Part shown: one piece after another, positions 50,055-63,360 of the stretch
Layout of the letters: each line of letters starts with the position of its first letter
Position numbering within the stretch: the stretch's first letter is position 1
Source of the DNA: a virus
Reading direction: 5' to 3' (one strand)
DNA: 64,000 nucleotides
IMG/VR virus record: IMGVR_UViG_3300037156_000189
Location: 1 to 64,000 of that record
Position numbers and translations under genes: made by a program
The notes under the pieces: model-generated
The model's database searches: none
Seen by the model: the letters and a program-made list of their open reading frames with translations, nothing else
What the model was told of the DNA's origin: nothing

Positions 50055-51016
50055 CCAATGATCACTCAGCACCAGAACGTACTCACACTGACCTTCCTGA
50101 CGGAAGCTTCAGCGACGACCTTCGCAGCTTTCTTGGGCAGCCTGCTGACGAGCCAAAACCCGCCACCCGCACCCGAAATCTCCGAACCTCCTTCCGAGCC
50201 GTCCCAGCAGCGTTCGCACCACGTCCTGTTGACGGACGACCGGCTGGAGCAACTCTCGAACCAGCGCGCCCAGGGCCTGACCGCGCACCAGCGGCTCCTG
50301 CGCGCGCAAAGTTCTTTAAGGGATGGCGTGCTCCCGTTCAGCAAGCCGGGGCAGGCGCCTCAACCGACAAACCAGTCCAGCCCGCGGATGCGAGCCCAGC
50401 AGGAGGGCGGGTTCGCGGATGGGGGCGCGGTCGCAGTGCGACCAACAGCGCCGCAGTTACGGAGCCCGGACCCGCAGCCGCAGGCCGACCTCGTGGCCGT
50501 CCACCAGGAAGCGGGAAGAAGGCCAAGCAAGCTGCGGCCAGTGACGCCAAGCCAGATCTCCCCAAAGACATAGCGAAGCTGGTTGGCAAGGTAGAACCGT
50601 CCGCGCCTCGTGCGATCATTCCCACTGAGTCCGAGCGGTCGAGCGCCACCCGTCTCTTCCGCCAGATCGGCGAGACTTTCAACACCAACCGGAAGAAGTC
50701 AAAGACTGCAGCTTATGCCGCCTTCCGTCACGACCTGATGGCGAATCTCGACACCCTGATCATGGGTGGCGCGATCGATCTCAAGGAAGCGACAACCATC
50801 ATCACCAACTTGGAGCAGTACACCAAGGAGACTGAGGCCGAGTCGACAGAGACGCCGGCGACGATCCTGGGCCGCTGGCTCAGGATGGACGCTGCGGAAG
50901 TGGCTGGGTTGTCGGTGGGCGAGCCCGGCGAGTTGGTTGCGAACGAACCGGATGAAGAGGACGAAGAGGAAGTGTCGGCTGAAGCGGATCCGGACGGAGA
51001 ACTAGAGAGCGCTTAG
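50051..51016 (+). CDS. Hypothetical protein with an AT-hook (GRPRGRPPGS) and a helical, acidic C-terminus
   Basis: ATGA-coupled to terL; overlaps an alternative-frame ORF at 50058-50573. Confidence 0.55.
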   Translation: MTNDHSAPERTHTDLPDGSFSDDLRSFLGQPADEPKPATRTRNLRTSFRAVPAAFAPRPVDGRPAGATLEPARPGPDRAPAAPARAKFFKGWRAPVQQAGAGASTDKPVQPADASPAGGRVRGWGRGRSATNSAAVTEPGPAAAGRPRGRPPGSGKKAKQAAASDAKPDLPKDIAKLVGKVEPSAPRAIIPTESERSSATRLFRQIGETFNTNRKKSKTAAYAAFRHDLMANLDTLIMGGAIDLKEATTIITNLEQYTKETEAESTETPATILGRWLRMDAAEVAGLSVGEPGELVANEPDEEDEEEVSAEADPDGELESA

Positions 51017-51093
51017 TGTTGTGGCCCGAATTTCCCAAACCATCTTTTTTTCGACTATCCTTCCCGGTAGTAACGTTTTGAGGAGGAACTCCT

Positions 51094-51294
51094 TTGTCTA
51101 CCGCCCGTGCGAAATACCAGACGACCGCTCCTGCCGAGTTCTCCTCCGATCTTCCTCGGAACCCGCGCCGGGAATTCAACTCCCCTTCGGCCCGGCCTTC
51201 CGGCCGCTCCGGCGGTGGCCCCGCCGTTTCCACCCCCCACCGCGTTTCATCCTCGATTCGTAAGGGGAAGAAAGCGAGCCGCCGCCGTGGATGA
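51094..51294 (+). CDS. Small basic protein
   Basis: SD GAGGAGG, TTG start, C-terminus RKGKKASRRRG. Confidence 0.55.
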   Translation: MSTARAKYQTTAPAEFSSDLPRNPRREFNSPSARPSGRSGGGPAVSTPHRVSSSIRKGKKASRRRG

Positions 51295-52270: not shown

Positions 52271-52417
52271 ATGGAGAAGAGTCAAAGTTGTGGCGTTCCA
52301 GAGAGTCAGGAATCGCCTGCTTTTGAGGCGAAAAATCACTCTACTGCTTTCCTGCGCAAGGCCGTCCGCGCATCCGAGAAGAAGCCGGGCAGGCGTGCGG
52401 CGAAGAAACGGGGCTGA
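52271..52417 (+). CDS. Small protein with a basic tail (…KKPGRRAAKKRG)
   Basis: SD AGGAGG, 48 aa, not in the ORF track. Confidence 0.55.
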   Translation: MEKSQSCGVPESQESPAFEAKNHSTAFLRKAVRASEKKPGRRAAKKRG

Positions 52418-52419
52418 TC

Positions 52420-52629
52420 ATGCCTTGGGCGCCGAAAGAATCTTCCCGGTTTACGAAGAAGGCCAAGTCGCCGAAGCGCAAGCGCCAGTGGGCTCATGTC
52501 GCGGACTCCATGTTTGAGCGAACCGGTGATGAGGGAGCCGCGATCCGTGCGGCCAATGGCGTGGTTCGCAAGTCTCGGTCCAAATCCTCTGCCCATCATC
52601 GTGCCCCCAGAAGGAGTTATCGCTCGTGA
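52420..52629 (+). CDS. ChaB-like small basic head-region protein
   Basis: MPW...KKAKSPKRKRQWAHVA...AIRAANGVV. Confidence 0.6.
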   Translation: MPWAPKESSRFTKKAKSPKRKRQWAHVADSMFERTGDEGAAIRAANGVVRKSRSKSSAHHRAPRRSYRS

Positions 52630-57664: not shown

Positions 57665-59440
57665 GTGGCAAACGTATTTTTGATCTCGAATCCGTCGCGC
57701 AAGTCGGCCAAGCAGGAACATCTTGACCCGAGAAGCCGTCATATTTCTGAATGGGTAGAAGCTTCTGACAGTGCCCGTAATAAGGCCTTGGGGGAGAACT
57801 TCGCAAAAGACGCAGAATCCCTCTACAATCTTTCTGACGCGATGACCCCCGGCCCGGTCTATCGGCCTTCCCTCTCGATCCCCATGCTGCAGAGGATCAT
57901 GCTGGAGGAAGCGAACCAGGTCAGCAATCTCTCGCCGAGAATGTACATTTTTCCCTCTGCCGGTGCTGGCGATCCATCCTACTCCGGCGCCAAGCAGGCT
58001 GACTCTTCACTAAGTCCAACTTCGTCCCGTGATCTTTCTCGTGAGGTCTCGCTCCAAGCTCAGTGGCAGATTTCCAAAATGAATCTGCATTTGCTGATGG
58101 CTGGATTGACCGCGCGATATTGCGGCGCTGGGTGGATCGTTGCCGGGTTTGATCCAGACCTTTCTCGTGCTCGTGGCGGTATGTGGGCAAGGTCCATCGA
58201 CCCTCGTTTGGTCTTCTTTGACCCCGGCACCGACTACACATGGAACCCCAGCTATGCCGGCTGGGGAACGTGGATGAATCTCGAAGATGTCCGGTTGAAG
58301 TGGCCGGAGACGTCGCGCGCCATTTCCCCGCGGCACACTTCAGGCGGGTTCCAGCCGTTCTCCGGCGATTCCGGTTATGGGATCTCGCAGCCTCCGGGAC
58401 CGATGAGTACGATGCCTTCTTCTCCAGGACAGAATGCGAAGACCCAAAGTTCTGAATGGCGCGTCTTAGTCCGGCATTGCTTCTGCCGCGATTACACGCG
58501 GGAACAGGTGGAGAAGCCGGACGTTCCGACTACATCTTTGATAGACCCAGAAGTTCGGTTGAAATACCCCAACGGCCGTTGGCTTGTGGAATGCGAAGGA
58601 GTTGTGCTTCAGGACGGAGATAACCCCTATCCTCCCCGGCGTGACATCTCCGCTCCGCGGTTCCCGCTCTTTCCAAATTACGTACTTCCTCCGCTGTTTG
58701 GCCCCTGGGGAATCCCCGTCACCCGTATGACCGAGAACATGCAGCGCCTCGGTCAGAGGTTCATGTCACAGACCTTCGAGAATGGTCTTCGTATGAACAA
58801 CGCGCTCTGGGTCATTGATGAAAATACAGGCATCGATATCGACGGATTTGGTGGGCTCCCAGGCGAAGTGGTGACGATCAAGCCGGGCAGCCGGCCTCCC
58901 CAGCCGATCACACCGGCTGCGATCGGTGCTGGTGCTCTCCAGGCCGTCGATAAATTATTTTCAATGCAGAACGATGTGCTCGGGTTCTCTGCCTCACGGC
59001 AGGGCAACCCCGGCGCAGGGAATGTCTCGACCGACCTGTTCGATTCCGCAGTTCTGCAGTCGTCCGGTTTACTGCAATTGGCGGGACGATTCTTGAGTGA
59101 GACAGCGCAGAGCGTTGGCGAGTTTATGTTCGACGCGATGTGCAAGTACCAGCAGAAGTCCACTCTTCCCTATCGTGGACCGGAGGGGATCACTCTCGCC
59201 TCGTGGAATGGCCAGGTTGATCCTTCGACTTACGACCTCGCTTTGGATGACGCGAGTGTCAGGCCTTTGTCTGAAGCGATCGTTCGCAAAATCACGCCGG
59301 ATTTGATGAAATCCGGAGTAGTTGGGCCAGAGCGCGGTCTTCGCACCCTCGGTTACCCTGATCCTGAAGGAATCGCCAAGGAGCAGGAGACAAGCCAGGC
59401 CCTGGCCGCTTTAGCTAAAGTTCGGAGTGGAAGGAAGTGA
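57665..59440 (+). CDS. Portal protein (P22-like)
   Basis: 591 aa between terL and scaffold; IDPRLVFFDP, PWGIPV...MQR, PGEVVTIKPG, DVLGFS..RQG. Confidence 0.8.
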   Translation: MANVFLISNPSRKSAKQEHLDPRSRHISEWVEASDSARNKALGENFAKDAESLYNLSDAMTPGPVYRPSLSIPMLQRIMLEEANQVSNLSPRMYIFPSAGAGDPSYSGAKQADSSLSPTSSRDLSREVSLQAQWQISKMNLHLLMAGLTARYCGAGWIVAGFDPDLSRARGGMWARSIDPRLVFFDPGTDYTWNPSYAGWGTWMNLEDVRLKWPETSRAISPRHTSGGFQPFSGDSGYGISQPPGPMSTMPSSPGQNAKTQSSEWRVLVRHCFCRDYTREQVEKPDVPTTSLIDPEVRLKYPNGRWLVECEGVVLQDGDNPYPPRRDISAPRFPLFPNYVLPPLFGPWGIPVTRMTENMQRLGQRFMSQTFENGLRMNNALWVIDENTGIDIDGFGGLPGEVVTIKPGSRPPQPITPAAIGAGALQAVDKLFSMQNDVLGFSASRQGNPGAGNVSTDLFDSAVLQSSGLLQLAGRFLSETAQSVGEFMFDAMCKYQQKSTLPYRGPEGITLASWNGQVDPSTYDLALDDASVRPLSEAIVRKITPDLMKSGVVGPERGLRTLGYPDPEGIAKEQETSQALAALAKVRSGRK

Positions 59441-59679
59441 AAAAGGTGGATGATAAAACGGAATCTGTGGTCCTTTCTTCTACCCGTCTCGTCCCTATTT
59501 ACAACTGGCGCGCTCATTGGTTGACCGTTCAGGAATTTAGCCGTTTAATGGGTCGAAAACCGAGGACGGTTTACGACTGGATTGACGACGGCACGCTGGC
59601 CGAATTTGGGATTCCATCATGTCAGTTCCGATACGGCAAATTACATTCAGGCCGGACTTTTATACGAAACGTGTTCTAG
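59437..59679 (+). CDS. Excisionase-like HTH protein
   Basis: WLTVQEFSRLMGRKPRTVYDWIDDGTL. Confidence 0.7.
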   Translation: MKKVDDKTESVVLSSTRLVPIYNWRAHWLTVQEFSRLMGRKPRTVYDWIDDGTLAEFGIPSCQFRYGKLHSGRTFIRNVF

Positions 59680-59701
59680 TTCTTCTTTTTGCAAACTTAG
59701 T

Positions 59702-59744
59702 GTTGCGGTGGCAACTTGCCCCCACCCCCTTCCCGTTCTATCCT
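59702..59744 (+). promoter_or_regulatory. Candidate promoter with an upstream palindrome
   Basis: GTTGC-GGTG-GCAAC, then TTGCCC-17-TATCCT. Confidence 0.4.
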
Positions 59745-59802
59745 CTCCTTAATCGCACTTCCATAGGCATTCGTGCTTACGCTCGTGCAAAGGAGAAACA
59801 CC

Positions 59803-59865
59803 ATGGCTCATCACAAGCGCAAGGAAACCAAGAAAGAGCGGCGCGCAGCCGCGCGGCGCAAGTAG
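59803..59865 (+). CDS. Basic micro-peptide MAHHKRKETKKERRAAARRK
   Basis: SD AAGGAG, 20 aa, 10 K/R. Confidence 0.6.
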   Translation: MAHHKRKETKKERRAAARRK

Positions 59866-59954
59866 TTAGACCCAGCGGATTCGTCCGCTGTTTCTTTCTG
59901 TTTGCCCGGCTTTAGCCGTCCCGCACCTAACTTCCGAAAGGAGCCTCAGTCCAG

Positions 59955-60083
59955 ATGGCCGGAACCCCTCGAACCAAAGCTTCCAGCGTCGTCAAAGACT
60001 TTGACCAACCCCGGAAGTTCCTGCGTGACATGCGTGCCAAGATCGGCAAGAACTCTCGCAAGAGCGGTTCCCGCCGGCCCTGA
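59955..60083 (+). CDS. Basic micro-peptide MAGTPRTK...KNSRKSGSRRP
   Basis: SD AAGGAG, 42 aa, 13 K/R. Confidence 0.55.
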   Translation: MAGTPRTKASSVVKDFDQPRKFLRDMRAKIGKNSRKSGSRRP

Positions 60084-60189
60084 CTCATTCCGGAGACGGC
60101 GCTGCTGGCCTTCGCGCCCCGTCTTCTTAACCGCTGAGCATTGGACTTGTCCAGCATGCCTCGGCAACCGGAGCGAAGGAGGTACGCAG

Positions 60190-60249
60190 ATGGCAGCTCG
60201 TGGGGGCAGACGATCCACGCGGCGTCGGCGCACCGCCGCTCGCAAGTAG
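60190..60249 (+). CDS. Basic micro-peptide MAARGGRRSTRRRRTAARK
   Basis: SD AAGGAGGT, 19 aa, 9 K/R. Confidence 0.65.
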   Translation: MAARGGRRSTRRRRTAARK

Positions 60250-60397
60250 GGGACGAGACTAACCTCTCGGCCTCGTTCGGCGGTGAGATGGGATTTGGTG
60301 GGGGACTAGGCCCCATCTTCTCCGTCGAAAGCGTTCGATGCGCAAGACAGGGCAAAGGTCGAGCAGGGACGGTAACCCCCGGCTCGGCCTGAGTCCC
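60250..60397 (+). ncRNA. Multi-branched structured RNA spacer (unknown class)
   Basis: GGGAC/GTCCC closing stem; TTCGGCGG..AGATGGG/CCCATCT..CCGTCGAA; AGGTCGAGC/GCTCGGCCT. Confidence 0.4.
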
Positions 60398-60411
60398 AAG
60401 GAGGTTTGACC

Positions 60412-60483
60412 GTGAAGATGACTAGTAAGATCGCTCGGATGACCCATAAGGTGGACCGCAGGGTCGGAAAAAAGCGGAAGTAA
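60412..60483 (+). CDS. Basic micro-peptide MKMTSKIARMTHKVDRRVGKKRK
   Basis: SD AAGGAGGT, GTG start, 23 aa, 10 K/R. Confidence 0.6.
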   Translation: MKMTSKIARMTHKVDRRVGKKRK

Positions 60484-60537
60484 GCTGGATAACCGGACAT
60501 TTTAGTAGCACCAATCTCACCCTCGAAGGAGCAGCAG

Positions 60538-60723
60538 ATGGCGAAGATCAAGGAAAGCATGGGCAACACTTTCAATTCCGAAATTTTGAAGAGCCCCCTC
60601 ACGGTCGGCCGTACCGGTAACGAGCCCGGCGCCGATGTGAACAATAACCCGATTGCCATGCCCAAGGATCCCCTTGGCCTGATCCCCGAAGGCGGCGACA
60701 AGCCCTATTGGTCGGGAAAGTAA
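60538..60723 (+). CDS. Small head-region protein
   Basis: SD AAGGAG, 61 aa. Confidence 0.6.
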   Translation: MAKIKESMGNTFNSEILKSPLTVGRTGNEPGADVNNNPIAMPKDPLGLIPEGGDKPYWSGK

Positions 60724-62273: not shown

Positions 62274-62373
62274 CCAAGCAAGTTTCTCTGAGAAGCGGTT
62301 ATTCCGCTTCTCTCACCTCAATCACTAACCCGTCGGCAACCTCCCCCGTTTGCCCGACTCAGGAGCAGCCATC

Positions 62374-63360
62374 ATGGCCAATAGCGTGGTTGGACTGGGA
62401 CTAGCATCGCCGCCGGTACAGCTCTCGAACACCGTCAACGCGATTTCCCAGAAATTTATCGTCCCTGTCCTCGGCGACAACGTGTTCAAGCCCTCCCCTG
62501 TTTTCTGGGCGCTCACGCGCGAGGGAAAACGGTTTGGAGCCGGTGAGTTGATCTTCCCGGAAATCTACCAGGAAGAACTCCCCGGTGGCGCCTATTACGG
62601 CGACCAGTTGCTGGACACTTCGGTTGTCGATTCCGTGCAGCCGGCCAACCAGCAATGGAAGCCATACCGCCAGCCGGTGGTCATTCCGATTACCGACATC
62701 ATCCTGAACCGCGGCGGATCGAACAACCTGGACATCATCCGGGCGAAGTTCCAGACGGCATCCGGTTCGTTCCTGCAGAAGCTCTCCCGCGCGCTGTGGC
62801 ACACCTCGCCGCAGAACACCTCGCTCGACGTGGACGATCTGAACTCGTGGGTGGTGTCGACCACCAACACAATCGCTGGGATCAACCGCGCTTCCTCGGC
62901 CAATGCCTGGTGGCTGGCCGCAACGGCCGCGGCCGGCGGTTCCGCGGCTCTCTCATCGGCCACGGCTGAGCCAGCATATCAGTCGGTCACCTGGGGCTAC
63001 GACGAGCCCGATCTGTTCGTGATGAACCGGACTTCCTACGCTGCGTTCAAGAACAACTTCGTCACCAACATCCGCTATGGACAGGGGATGGAGGATGACG
63101 AGGCCTTGCAGGTCGGCTTCCGCAATCACTTCCTGTTCAACAACGCCGTCACGGTGGCCGATTATTTCGCGACCGCCAATCAGGCTCTGTTGCTGAACTC
63201 GAAGTACATCTTCCCGGTCTTCCATGAGGCTGACTATTTCAACGTCGACCCGTTCCTCAAGCCGAGCAATCAGCGTGTCCTGGTCTCGTGCATGTACCTG
63301 ACCTGGAATCTGAGCTGCATCTCGACAAGAATGAACGTGGCGATCACGCCCATCACGTAG
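62374..63360 (+). CDS. Major capsid protein (HK97 fold)
   Basis: 328 aa; DNVFKPSP, Y.GD..LD, WK.Y..PV.I, IAGINRA...WW, PDLFVM, LLNSKY. Confidence 0.85.
   Translation: MANSVVGLGLASPPVQLSNTVNAISQKFIVPVLGDNVFKPSPVFWALTREGKRFGAGELIFPEIYQEELPGGAYYGDQLLDTSVVDSVQPANQQWKPYRQPVVIPITDIILNRGGSNNLDIIRAKFQTASGSFLQKLSRALWHTSPQNTSLDVDDLNSWVVSTTNTIAGINRASSANAWWLAATAAAGGSAALSSATAEPAYQSVTWGYDEPDLFVMNRTSYAAFKNNFVTNIRYGQGMEDDEALQVGFRNHFLFNNAVTVADYFATANQALLLNSKYIFPVFHEADYFNVDPFLKPSNQRVLVSCMYLTWNLSCISTRMNVAITPIT

Follow-up and report, generated by a model that had tools for sequence, protein, structure and literature searches.

Conserved genes for polycationic micro-proteins alternate with structured RNA elements between the portal and head genes of an uncultured clade of peat phages

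An uncultured tailed phage from peat carries, between its genes for portal and major head protein, four very short reading frames rich in Arg and Lys which alternate with spacers that appear to fold. Are these reading frames genes, do the spacers act as RNA, and for what purpose would a phage maintain such an array? The window, i.e., the whole stretch of DNA analysed, comprises 64,000 nucleotides (positions 1 to 64,000 of IMG/VR record IMGVR_UViG_3300037156_000189) of a genome of 74.7 kb. The host is probably an acidobacterium. Positions are those of the window and all features described below are on the + strand. The array at 59.7-60.5 kb forms the 5' part of a head-gene operon.

The array is flanked as follows. 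Upstream is a gene for a helix-turn-helix protein of 80 aa (59437..59679; HTH_17/excisionase-like), already noticed in the preliminary description of this DNA and now identified by Pfam PF12728 (1.4e-6) and phrog_575. It overlaps the portal stop codon and, according to tblastn, lies upstream of the array in all relatives. It is followed by a conserved bipartite box (59696..59758) which consists of CTTAGTGTTGYGG, about 29 nt, and then CTATCCTYYCC(TTAATCGCAC). In the entire 74.7-kb genome the box exists in two copies only, at 51012 and 59696. Both are intergenic, on the + strand and equally spaced, and the box is conserved in relatives. We infer a candidate late promoter or regulator site ahead of the array. 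The first ordinary gene downstream codes for p61 (60538..60723), a protein of 61 aa which is not basic, carries an ILKSPLTVGR motif and is 73-92% identical in relatives. Next are p181, a 327-aa protein and the major head protein (phrog_9953, 2e-23).

About 60 relatives share this layout of 3-5 tiny genes for polycationic peptides with conserved RNA hairpins in between, and metagenomes from peat, soil and freshwater commonly contain the phage group. Conservation was assessed in 43 distinct relatives with portals 63-94% identical; the DNA of the array interval is only about 70% identical among them. On these comparisons the four micro-ORFs, termed m1 to m4, are real, conserved and translated-looking genes. 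Conservation in relatives, on which the preliminary description had staked them, holds for m1, m2 and m3 in 43 of 43 genomes and for m4 in 42 of 43, the exception being L065 (L-numbers designate individual relatives). An AAGGAG-type Shine-Dalgarno sequence (SD) precedes each micro-ORF in the relatives, and starts and stops are kept. Indels inside the ORFs are restricted to whole codons, those in the spacers are of any length, and variation in the micro-ORFs is highest at third codon positions. When both strands of the 74.7-kb genome were scanned for ORFs of 10-60 aa with a strong SD and a K+R fraction of at least 0.31, these four, packed within 700 bp, and one other were found. Their positions, strong SDs and K/R contents of 31-50% had been correctly described at the outset, as had the common C-terminal end of m1 and m3, CGCAAGTAG. 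The K+R fractions of m1 through m4 are 0.50, 0.31, 0.47 and 0.43 with net charges of +8, +10, +9 and +9. The micro-proteins have 19-42 aa and a pI of about 12; over all relatives peptide lengths span 12-45 aa. In two metatranscriptome runs of a study which holds this DNA 0 contigs mapped to the stretch, which is evidence neither for nor against expression.

The individual members are conserved in different ways. m1 (59803..59865; 20 aa, MAHHKRKETKKERRAAARRK; SD AAGGAG at 59790-59795) corresponds to a K/R-rich, SD-led ORF of 12-23 aa at the same position in 43/43 relatives. Its sequence varies with little identity, K and R are swapped freely, and the median K+R fraction is 0.56. As far as the alignments tell, m1 keeps charge, not sequence. 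m2 (59955..60083; 42 aa, SD at 59938-59943) possesses a conserved core, VVKDFGQPRKFLRDMRAK, and its homologues are confined to this phage clade. The entropies at its three codon positions are 0.66/0.47/0.91 and the pooled pN/pS is 0.52. An AF2 model predicts a single helix comprising residues 19-36 (pLDDT 67). m3 (60190..60249; 19 aa, MAARGGRRSTRRRRTAARK; SD AAGGAGGT at 60176-60183) is Arg-rich, with 9 Arg in 19 codons, and 80-100% identical in all 43 relatives, in which it measures 17-20 aa with indels in multiples of three. The pooled pN/pS of m3 is 0.36, and Gly and Arg codons in its 5' half change synonymously. The K/R interchange and an RGG kept through synonymous changes argue for selection on the m3 peptide itself. 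In the 3' half even synonymous sites do not vary. A hairpin within m3 as the cause of this invariance was considered and rejected, its pairing being broken in L020-type variants. m4 (60412..60483; 23 aa, core RMTKKVDRRVGK) starts with GTG; an in-frame ATG at 60418 would yield 21 aa. Its SD at 60398-60405 is again AAGGAGGT; for m3 and m4 alike this element may also be written AAGGAGGU. The specific conserved motifs of m2, m3 and m4, i.e., KDFGQPRKFLRDMRAK, RGGRR and VDRRVGK, suggest that these peptides may have specific partners in addition to charge.

The membership of the array is not fixed. L052 carries a fifth ORF. L065, L076, L108, L162 and L163 are devoid of m4 and/or m2 and possess a new basic ORF of 30-46 aa after p61. 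Where members are swapped, too, the summed net charge of the array remains at about +32 to +38 (median 35), a constancy which depends on the ORF-calling thresholds, some calls being false and some missed. Two further kinds of reading frame were encountered. Long stop-free frames opposite m3 exist in every relative (median 136 codons). An antisense gene was rejected at this place: the frame relative to m3 differs among relatives and the translations are unrelated, so these frames are compositional. Further, L027 and L030 contain an inserted 181-aa ORF without a Pfam match.

No described module, protein family or Rfam model fits the array; the preliminary description, too, had recognised no described module. 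The peptides, p61, p181 and the 327-aa protein are without match in Pfam, NCBIfam and PHROGs. A PDB sequence search with the peptides returned nothing and the ESM Atlas no usable match. Protein collections of 5.8 billion and 1.8 billion entries yielded no homologues outside this phage clade. A search of 50,697 phage records with the portal gave no match, and no cultured relative was found. The major head protein is 25% identical to its counterpart in Myxococcus phage Mx9; no array of this kind separates the portal and capsid genes of that phage. An Rfam search at E up to 10 returned noise only, the best being SorY with 24 bits against a gathering threshold of 111.

The evidence for structure in the spacers is comparative. 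When single sequences were folded, spacer 2 was no better than its shuffles (z = 0.08) and spacer 3 had a z of -2.6. On the comparative evidence we regard the spacers as functional RNA. The expectation that they would covary and outfold shuffled sequence was borne out for covariation in the E1 stem and in helix H2 of E5; it failed for the folding energy of spacer 2. Between m2 and m3 a three-way junction at 60088-60173 had been drawn. Two of its helices are real, AGACGG/CCGTCT in E1 and GCTGAG...CTCGGC in E2. The closing helix, TTCCGG/CCGGAG, is not conserved, and the junction is not supported: the helix is 75% paired, which is no more than in a control shifted by one column, and one of its pairs is broken in 50 of 58 sequences.

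The E1 hairpin (60092..60126) has the stem GGAGACGG/CCGUCUUC and a near-invariant loop, UGCUGGCCUUCGCGCC. The stem begins 9 nt past the m2 stop codon, a distance which is fixed. In the alignments 93.5-94.8% of its cells are paired and both sides change in 6-7 of 8 pairs, which was reached by 0 of 500 shuffles. The loop length is 11-22 nt. The core of the loop, CCUUCGC (60109..60115), pairs with GCGAAGG (60173-60179) in the nearly invariant translation-initiation region of m3 (60173..60189), where it overlaps the SD (60176-60183). This 7-bp pairing, CCUUCGC:GCGAAGG, exists in 58 of 58 distinct sequences. One pair is C-G in 56 sequences and U-A in two, L162 and L197, which belong to different lineages; no sequence has a single-sided change at this pair. 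These are two independent C-G to U-A double changes, one of which falls inside the SD itself. Base pairing across the m3 SD region is therefore backed by covariation, as expected of a pseudoknot that sequesters a ribosome-binding site (RBS), with the support residing in one covarying pair while the other six are invariant. As judged from these comparisons, the most conserved RNA contact of the array is the E1 loop-to-SD pseudoknot, formed around the variable hairpin E2. Pairing with the m3 SD accounts for the invariant E1 loop core, and recognition by a peptide is not needed to explain it.

The other RNA elements differ in their conservation. After m1, a hairpin CAGCGGA-UUCG-UCCGCUG with a U/C tract (59873..59903), which resembles a terminator or 3' stabiliser, was recovered by a terminator scan; its stem-loop, 59873-59890, had been recognised by eye. 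Relatives retain the GGA-UUCG-UCC cap and differ in the lower stem. E2 (60133..60165), between E1 and the m3 RBS, occurs in 34 distinct variants, which measure 27-75 nt and are unrelated in sequence; each of them folds into a single hairpin (median z -2.9). For 60250-60397 a multi-branched fold had been proposed, in place of which we find three hairpins in series, E4, E5 and E6. E4 (60250..60275) follows the m3 stop, folds in 20 distinct variants (median z -2.5), often has a UUCG loop in relatives and is missing from some. E6 (60352..60397) folds in 29 distinct variants (median z -4.2) upon a basal helix CAGGR/YCC, which ends 2-3 nt ahead of the m4 SD; it is the most variable spot in a strain that is 97% identical. 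Thus E2, E4 and E6 fold in every variant despite differing sequences.

E5 (60276..60329) contains H1, UUCGGCGG/CCGUCGAA, and H2, AGAUGGG (60286-60292)/CCCAUCU (60312-60318), and carries the invariant GGUGGGGGAC (60297-60306) in an apical loop of 18-20 nt. In H2 6-7 of 7 positions are paired in 29 of 29 sequences, taking the best of seven offsets per sequence, and compensatory variants such as GGCGAA/UUUGCC and GGUGGU/AUCACC occur. RNAalifold favoured a competing register that uses a copy of GGUGGG in the loop. A pairing of the E5 loop with the m2 leader was rejected, since the duplex energies of cognate (-15.7), non-cognate (-15.6) and shuffled (-15.3) combinations are alike. E5 is followed by a near-invariant tail, AGCGUUCGAUGCGCAAGACAGG (60330..60351), also given as GCGCAAGACAGG, which we consider non-coding because its reading frame differs among relatives. 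Its core, GAUGCGCAAG, survives even in L065, the most diverged relative; L076 and L108 retain only a shorter remnant, CCGCAAGGCAGG. The hairpin after m1 is the only terminator-like one. Most of the others are unlikely terminators, as no U-tract follows E4 or E6 and the U/C tail of E1 is lost in diverged relatives.

We are highly confident that the genes, the RNA helices and the pseudoknot are real. What might they do? We propose that the peptides would be late, bulk polycations, made together with the capsid proteins; most likely they are packaged along with the 75-kb genome and act on its DNA as counter-ions or condensing agents. The conservation of m1 by charge alone, the free interchange of K and R, and a total charge that stays constant with varying member number favour such polycations. 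One set amounts to +36 charges; if each capsid subunit were matched by one set (415-535 copies), the peptides would neutralise about 10-13% of the phosphates in the DNA. Some control at the RNA level is favoured as well, by the RBS-sequestering pseudoknot before m3 with its compensatory changes. The pseudoknot would mask the m3 ribosome-binding site and set m3 synthesis. It could be opened by ribosomes that terminate on m2 and disrupt E1, thereby coupling the m2 and m3 cistrons, or be stabilised by free peptide in an autoregulatory manner. Under either option m3 output would be tied to m2 and to demand. The remaining hairpins, i.e., the UUCG-capped and variable ones, most likely protect or process segments of a polycistronic mRNA and may so adjust the relative yields. 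A counter-ion role does not account for the invariant apical loop of E5, nor for the fact that the 3' half of m3 and the AGCGUUCGAUGCGCAAGACAGG tail do not vary at the nucleotide level. For the explanation as a whole, counter-ion role included, our confidence stays slightly short of even.

Both readings offered initially, packaged protamine-like peptides and a peptide-RNA relay, retain some support. In the latter, ARM peptides would bind the adjacent E1 loop, E5 loop and GCGCAAG tail and so control read-through or translation of the capsid/tail operon. m1 and m3 are ARM-like in composition, being Arg/Lys-rich throughout, although the match is one of composition only. The invariant E1 and E5 loops and the tail are more conserved than the neighbouring genes, the order of RNA site, variable hairpin, SD and Arg-rich ORF resembles pL-nutL-N, the array follows a putative promoter, and the specific motifs of m2, m3 and m4 would suit such a role. 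Yet peptides of 12-23 aa are too short for the NusA and RNA polymerase contacts of an N-type protein, a boxB-like hairpin with a GNRA pentaloop and an Rfam match are missing, and most hairpins are unlikely terminators. Antitermination, as initially considered, is thus without direct support. Further, charge alone is conserved in m1, the E1 loop core is explained by its pairing with the SD, and it would be odd for 4-5 different regulators to keep their summed charge constant. We consider regulation by peptide-RNA contacts rather unlikely, though it is the strongest of the rivals. The polycations might also remain unpackaged and act in head assembly, neutralising an acidic scaffold, p181 or the portal, or aiding the terminase-DNA complex, to be lost afterwards. 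The location in the head-assembly module, just before p61, p181, the 327-aa protein and the major head protein, and the strong SDs are compatible with this, and the predicted, amphipathic-looking helix of m2 could dock on a protein. A composition-only conservation of m1 with a constant total charge fits a bulk role better; the present evidence fits assembly cofactors and co-packaging alike. On balance transient cofactors appear distinctly unlikely to us.

Are the targets perhaps in the host? Polycations which late in infection attach to the ribosomes, rRNA or nucleoid of the host, e.g., to shut down or compact its nucleic acids, would share their extreme basicity with very small ribosomal proteins and nucleoid binders. 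However, the genes are part of a structural operon and not among early genes, no homologue was found beyond the phage clade in the two large protein collections, and PDB, Pfam and NCBIfam are without match, which makes a host target very unlikely. The 9 Arg codons of m3 and its 3' half, invariant at synonymous sites, would also suit a leader peptide, perhaps with others, on which stalling at Arg codons switches downstream RNA pairings. Such pairings compete around E5, where UUCGGCGG or UUCGAUGCG may pair with CCGCCGAA, and where two GGUGGG copies compete for one 3' strand. Against Arg sensing, K and R interchange and the RGG is kept synonymously, i.e., the peptide is selected; Arg codon usage in the micro-ORFs is ordinary with no enrichment of rare codons; a U-tract terminator is missing after E5 and E6; and the conserved cores of m2 and m4 are non-Arg. 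We give this hardly any credence. Equally little can be said for the view that the interval is a single extended non-coding RNA with structure, or else a DNA site (pac/cos), with incidental ORFs. The most conserved nucleotides are indeed partly outside the ORFs (E1, the m3 translation-initiation region, the E5 loop and the tail), and the 3' half of m3 is conserved at the nucleotide level. But SD, start, stop and frame are kept in 43/43 or 42/43 diverged relatives, indels within the ORFs are whole codons, and variation at third positions dominates. Against a DNA site in particular, UUCG tetraloops and G-U pairs indicate that the structure acts as RNA. Extremely unlikely is therefore how we rate an interval without peptides.

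We return to packaged polycations, our preferred reading. Tailed phages are generally thought to rely on polyamines and metal ions, not on encoded peptides, and we know of no encoded peptide counter-ions for the DNA of a tailed phage. A bolder proposition, which we ourselves regard as doubtful, is that phages of ion-poor, acidic peat encode 'protamines': 3-5 micro-proteins of about +35 per set would be co-packaged in hundreds of copies and neutralise at least 10% of the DNA charge, their synthesis being balanced by a pseudoknot through which one peptide is translated in step with its predecessor. If true, Caudoviricetes would gain their first example of a DNA counter-ion system encoded by the phage. 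Current accounts of how tailed phages pressurise, package and eject their DNA assume small ions and polyamines as counter-ions; should the peptides prove to be packaged, these accounts would have to be given an additional term for this clade. Encoded counter-ions would be expected to be most important where the environment is poor in cations. Whatever their role, four conserved genes have mostly been overlooked by standard gene callers. A clean, covariation-supported example of an RBS-masking pseudoknot is added, and the conserved E5 loop and GCGCAAGACAGG tail extend the phage RNA elements.

How does the array compare with known systems? Protein J of phiX174 and G4 (Microviridae) has 25-38 aa, is very basic and is encoded among morphogenesis genes beside those for scaffold and capsid. 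Produced late in infection, it enters the particle along with the genome and serves there as a counter-ion; the genome is ssDNA, the capsid is T=1, and a hydrophobic C-terminus serves as anchor. The likeness lies in a small basic peptide encoded among head or morphogenesis genes, with packaging only inferred for the peptides described here. However, J is a single gene of an ssDNA phage, whereas 3-5 different peptides without sequence similarity to J are encoded by a dsDNA tailed phage. Adenovirus VII and baculovirus P6.9 are called protamine-like core proteins (PMC10548178, PMC5899202). The traits of viral core polycations, small size, high K/R content and strong positive charge, are all found in the array, which is located between portal and major head protein behind a putative late box; homology to such proteins was not detected in Pfam, NCBIfam, PHROGs or PDB. 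Adenovirus mu (pX) and VII and baculovirus P6.9 are likewise short Arg-rich polycations, which are synthesised late and condense the dsDNA inside the virion. In contrast to the array peptides, they come from viruses of eukaryotes, undergo processing from precursors or phosphorylation, are not homologous and lack interleaved RNA operators.

With respect to RNA, lambda N is the obvious reference. N is an early gene product of 107 aa with NusA- and RNA polymerase-binding parts, encoded just downstream of nutL. Its SD is preceded by a large hairpin, and its translation is controlled through the leader RNA, N repressing its own synthesis; boxB has a stem of 5 bp and a GNRA-like pentaloop. An Arg-rich peptide gene directly 3' of a conserved RNA site and a hairpin before the SD are common to both; here, however, the conserved loop pairs with the SD itself. 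A boxB-type hairpin beside a boxA and a protein of about 100 aa with C-terminal regions binding NusA and RNA polymerase are missing from the array. Leader-peptide attenuators are less similar: U-tract terminators after E5/E6 are missing, and the peptide sequences are not unconstrained, as evident from RGG and the m2 and m4 cores. The coat-replicase 'Min Jou' interaction of MS2 and the operators of T4 gene 32 and of ribosomal proteins S15 and S4 share with the array the sequestration of a downstream RBS by an upstream element. In such systems, ribosomes translating the upstream cistron free the site, or the gene product keeps it closed. The array differs from them in sequence and architecture, in that a hairpin loop reaches the SD across a variable hairpin.

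The array interval, roughly 860 bp, follows an HTH_17/excisionase-like gene of 80 aa (59437-59679), which is itself preceded by the portal gene (57665-59440; a weak SU10_portal match). Downstream lie ORFs of 61 aa (p61, 60538-60723), 181 aa (p181) and 327 aa without family match, and the major head protein (62350-63360; phrog_9953, 2e-23). No tRNAs were found. The contig is 74,763 bp long, and its first 64 kb make up the window. The phage is uncultured and probably has an acidobacterial host, because its relatives reside in IMG/VR and JGI metagenomes from peat, soil and freshwater and on contigs binned into MAGs of Terracidiphilus and other Acidobacteria. A portal similar to this one was not found in any cultured phage. 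Among cultured phages the head protein matches only that of Myxococcus phage Mx9, with 25% identity.

The preliminary description called four SD-led ORFs, and all four are confirmed at their positions on the + strand: m1 (59803-59865), m2 (59955-60083), m3 (60190-60249) and m4 (60412-60483). A search of both strands of the whole genome for ORFs of 10-60 aa with a strong SD and a K+R fraction of 0.31 or more gave just five, and m1-m4, inside 700 bp, account for four. A portal-based search for relatives yielded 70 loci, with distinct versions of the interval in 43. DNA identity of the interval among relatives is only about 70%. Conservation of the ORFs and their SDs, a test set beforehand, is nevertheless evident: the SD-led K/R-rich ORF at the m1 position, m2 and m3 are each present in 43 of 43 distinct versions, and m4 is absent only from L065, the most diverged locus. 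At the protein level m3 is 80-100% identical among relatives; its length is 17, 18, 19 or 20 aa, always through gain or loss of entire codons, and synonymous changes occur at Gly-Gly and several Arg codons. Codon variation is greatest at third positions (pooled pN/pS 0.52 for m2, 0.36 for m3). The spacers behave differently, with indels of any length and conserved blocks that stand in differing frames between relatives. Conservation, whole-codon indels and third-position variation make it very probable that m1-m4 are translated genes.

In nearly every main-clade relative, synonymous sites are without variation in the 3' half of m3 (60220-60249, CGG CGU CGG CGC ACC GCC GCU CGC AAG UAG), in contrast to the 5' half, where synonymous variation is seen; a pairing partner for the 3' half was sought and no conserved one was found. 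Two antisense ORFs on the - strand, 59927-60355 (142 aa) and 60306-60701 (131 aa), which ORF callers could report, were rejected as compositional artefacts; their frame relative to m3 shifts among relatives.

The hairpin E1 (60092-60126), between m2 and m3, has a stem which is wholly replaced in diverged relatives while pairing is kept: GGAGACGG/CCGUCUUC becomes GGGAGUG/CACUCCC, GUCAGGGA/UCCCUGAC, GUGAGCGA/UCGCUCAC or GACAAUG/CAUUGUC. Pairing holds in about 94% of cells, and 6-7 of 8 pairs change on both sides, which is matched by none of 500 shuffles. The E1 loop UGCUGGCCUUCGCGCC and the 16 nt upstream of the m3 start are near-invariant. The loop core CCUUCGC exactly complements a GCGAAGG that overlaps the m3 SD AAGGAGG, and all 7 pairs are possible in 58 of 58 distinct sequences. 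Only one of these pairs varies, always with a matching change of both bases (C-G in 56 sequences, U-A in 2). The two exceptions are L162, of a diverged lineage, and L197, inside the main clade and 82% identical to L054, which has the standard C-G pair; as they belong to separate lineages, the double change arose twice. In both the change weakens the m3 SD (AAGGAGG to AAAGAGG) and the loop changes to match. The comparison thus offers good, if thin, evidence that the E1 loop and the m3 SD form a pseudoknot. The three-way junction proposed in the preliminary description gives way to this loop-to-SD pairing, its closing helix being unconserved. In nearly all sequences E1 begins 9 nt past the m2 stop codon, so a ribosome terminating on m2 would reach the base of E1.

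Between m3 and m4, E5 (60276-60329) is a hairpin of two helices. Its inner helix shows compensatory change and joins the E1 stem in answering the call for spacer covariation. The apical loop has 18-20 nt, and GGUGGGGGAC (60297-60306) stands unchanged in all genuine E5 loops seen; a pairing partner for this loop was sought and not found. A second GGUGGG copy, 5' of GGUGGGGGAC, is a rival for pairing with the same 3' strand, and RNAalifold favours a competing register with the loop's own GGUGGG; this suggests a two-state element with two possible conformations. E2 (between m2 and m3), E4 and E6 (both between m3 and m4) have sequences and lengths unrelated between relatives, yet each is always one stable hairpin (median folding z -2.9, -2.5 and -4.2, respectively), frequently with a UUCG tetraloop. 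The hairpin at 59873-59890 is likewise present where first noted, and a conserved tail of 22 nt reads AGCGUUCGAUGCGCAAGACAGG. A strain of about 97% identity, from a different sample (run X4), has its substitutions and 1-nt indels clustered in E6 (60352-60393); m2, E1, m3 and E5 together carry only four changes, including a synonymous GGG to GGA in m3.

A bipartite box (CTTAGTGTTGYGG, a gap of about 29 nt, then CTATCCTYYCC) occurs in exactly two copies in the 74.7-kb genome, both intergenic, on the + strand and ahead of structural gene blocks: the copy at 51012-51065 precedes the block running to the portal, that at 59696-59758 the array. The box is kept in relatives and does not match sigma-70 spacing. 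Probably it serves as a late promoter or as a regulator-binding site; the neighbouring HTH protein is a possible regulator. Downstream of the copy at 51012 we noted small SD-led ORFs with polybasic tails at 51094-51294 (66 aa, ending IRKGKKASRRRG), 52271-52417 (48 aa, ending KKPGRRAAKKRG) and 52420-52629 (a basic 69-aa ORF), calls which are uncertain because of overlapping frames. The junction of HTH gene and box appears to be a hot spot of gene gain, with insertions of 0.15-1.1 kb in L038 (8060-9240) and, upstream of m1, in L028, L029, L036, L041 and L043. Two further loci (L027:8791-9333, L030:7707-8249) carry an inserted 181-aa ORF between m4 and p61 without a Pfam match; its AAYIDGEGC resembles a LAGLIDADG motif, a tentative hint of a homing endonuclease.

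The peptides have net charges of +8 (m1), +10 (m2), +9 (m3) and +9 (m4) and a pI of about 12. In m1 the composition is kept (median K+R 0.56), sequence and length (12-23 aa) are not, and K and R are swapped freely; four loci (L006, L017, L023, L040) have MAKRHVRKEKKRK. The conserved cores of m2 and m4 are KDFGQPRKFLRDMRAK and RMTKKVDRRVGK. From P19 onwards m2 is predicted by AlphaFold2, with moderate confidence, to be a single helix; searches of two collections, with 5.8 and 1.8 billion proteins, placed its family (32-53 aa) in this phage group only. The make-up of the array changes between relatives: L052 carries an additional, fifth basic ORF and L214 two copies of m4. Diverged lineages (L065, L076, L108, L162, L163) have no m4, some also no m2, and all have a new basic ORF of 30-46 aa between p61 and p181, e.g., MANPGLKSKGLKSSHTRVPKNSFRNIPQRKGRR, frequently start/stop-coupled to its neighbours (L076:3100-4000, - strand; L108; L162:4480-4580; L163:4478-4580; in L065 after p61). 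Despite such gain and loss, the net charges add up to around +32 to +38 throughout (median 35), in ORF calls that include some false and missed ones.

These patterns are what one would expect of a bulk supply of polycation and not of four specific regulators, a reading favoured because m1 conserves composition only, membership is fluid and total charge is steady. One peptide set per capsid subunit would, we infer, neutralise about 10-13% of the genome phosphates. The main rival is a peptide-RNA regulator like lambda N, which the invariant RNA loops and the order RNA site, hairpin, SD, Arg-rich ORF would fit; against it stand the size of the peptides, an m1 sequence free of constraint, the steady total charge and the missing boxB-like element. 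The peptides could also be assembly cofactors, host-directed polycations or Arg-sensing attenuators, or the interval a purely non-coding RNA, but each of these is less likely than the two readings above.

For a polycation supply we envisage the following course, in which genes, RNA helices and pseudoknot are what the alignments document. The box would drive transcription, presumably late, of a polycistronic RNA with m1-m4 as its first cistrons, and the stable hairpins between cistrons may delimit or protect RNA segments. The E1 loop would mask the m3 ribosome-binding site up to the point at which E1 is disturbed by ribosomes completing m2; or else free peptide might reinforce the mask in an autoregulatory manner. 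The peptides would leave the cytoplasm bound to DNA undergoing packaging.

To our knowledge, no tailed phage has been described with an array in which such micro-protein genes alternate with conserved RNA operators, and our literature searches on protamine-like and small phage proteins gave none. In Mx9 the genes follow the same order (portal, small ORF, about 130 aa, about 350 aa, capsid), yet no micro-ORF array is present. The separate ingredients have precedents: encoded small polycations accompany viral DNA in Microviridae (protein J), adenoviruses and baculoviruses, and RNA pairings which mask ribosome-binding sites are known too.
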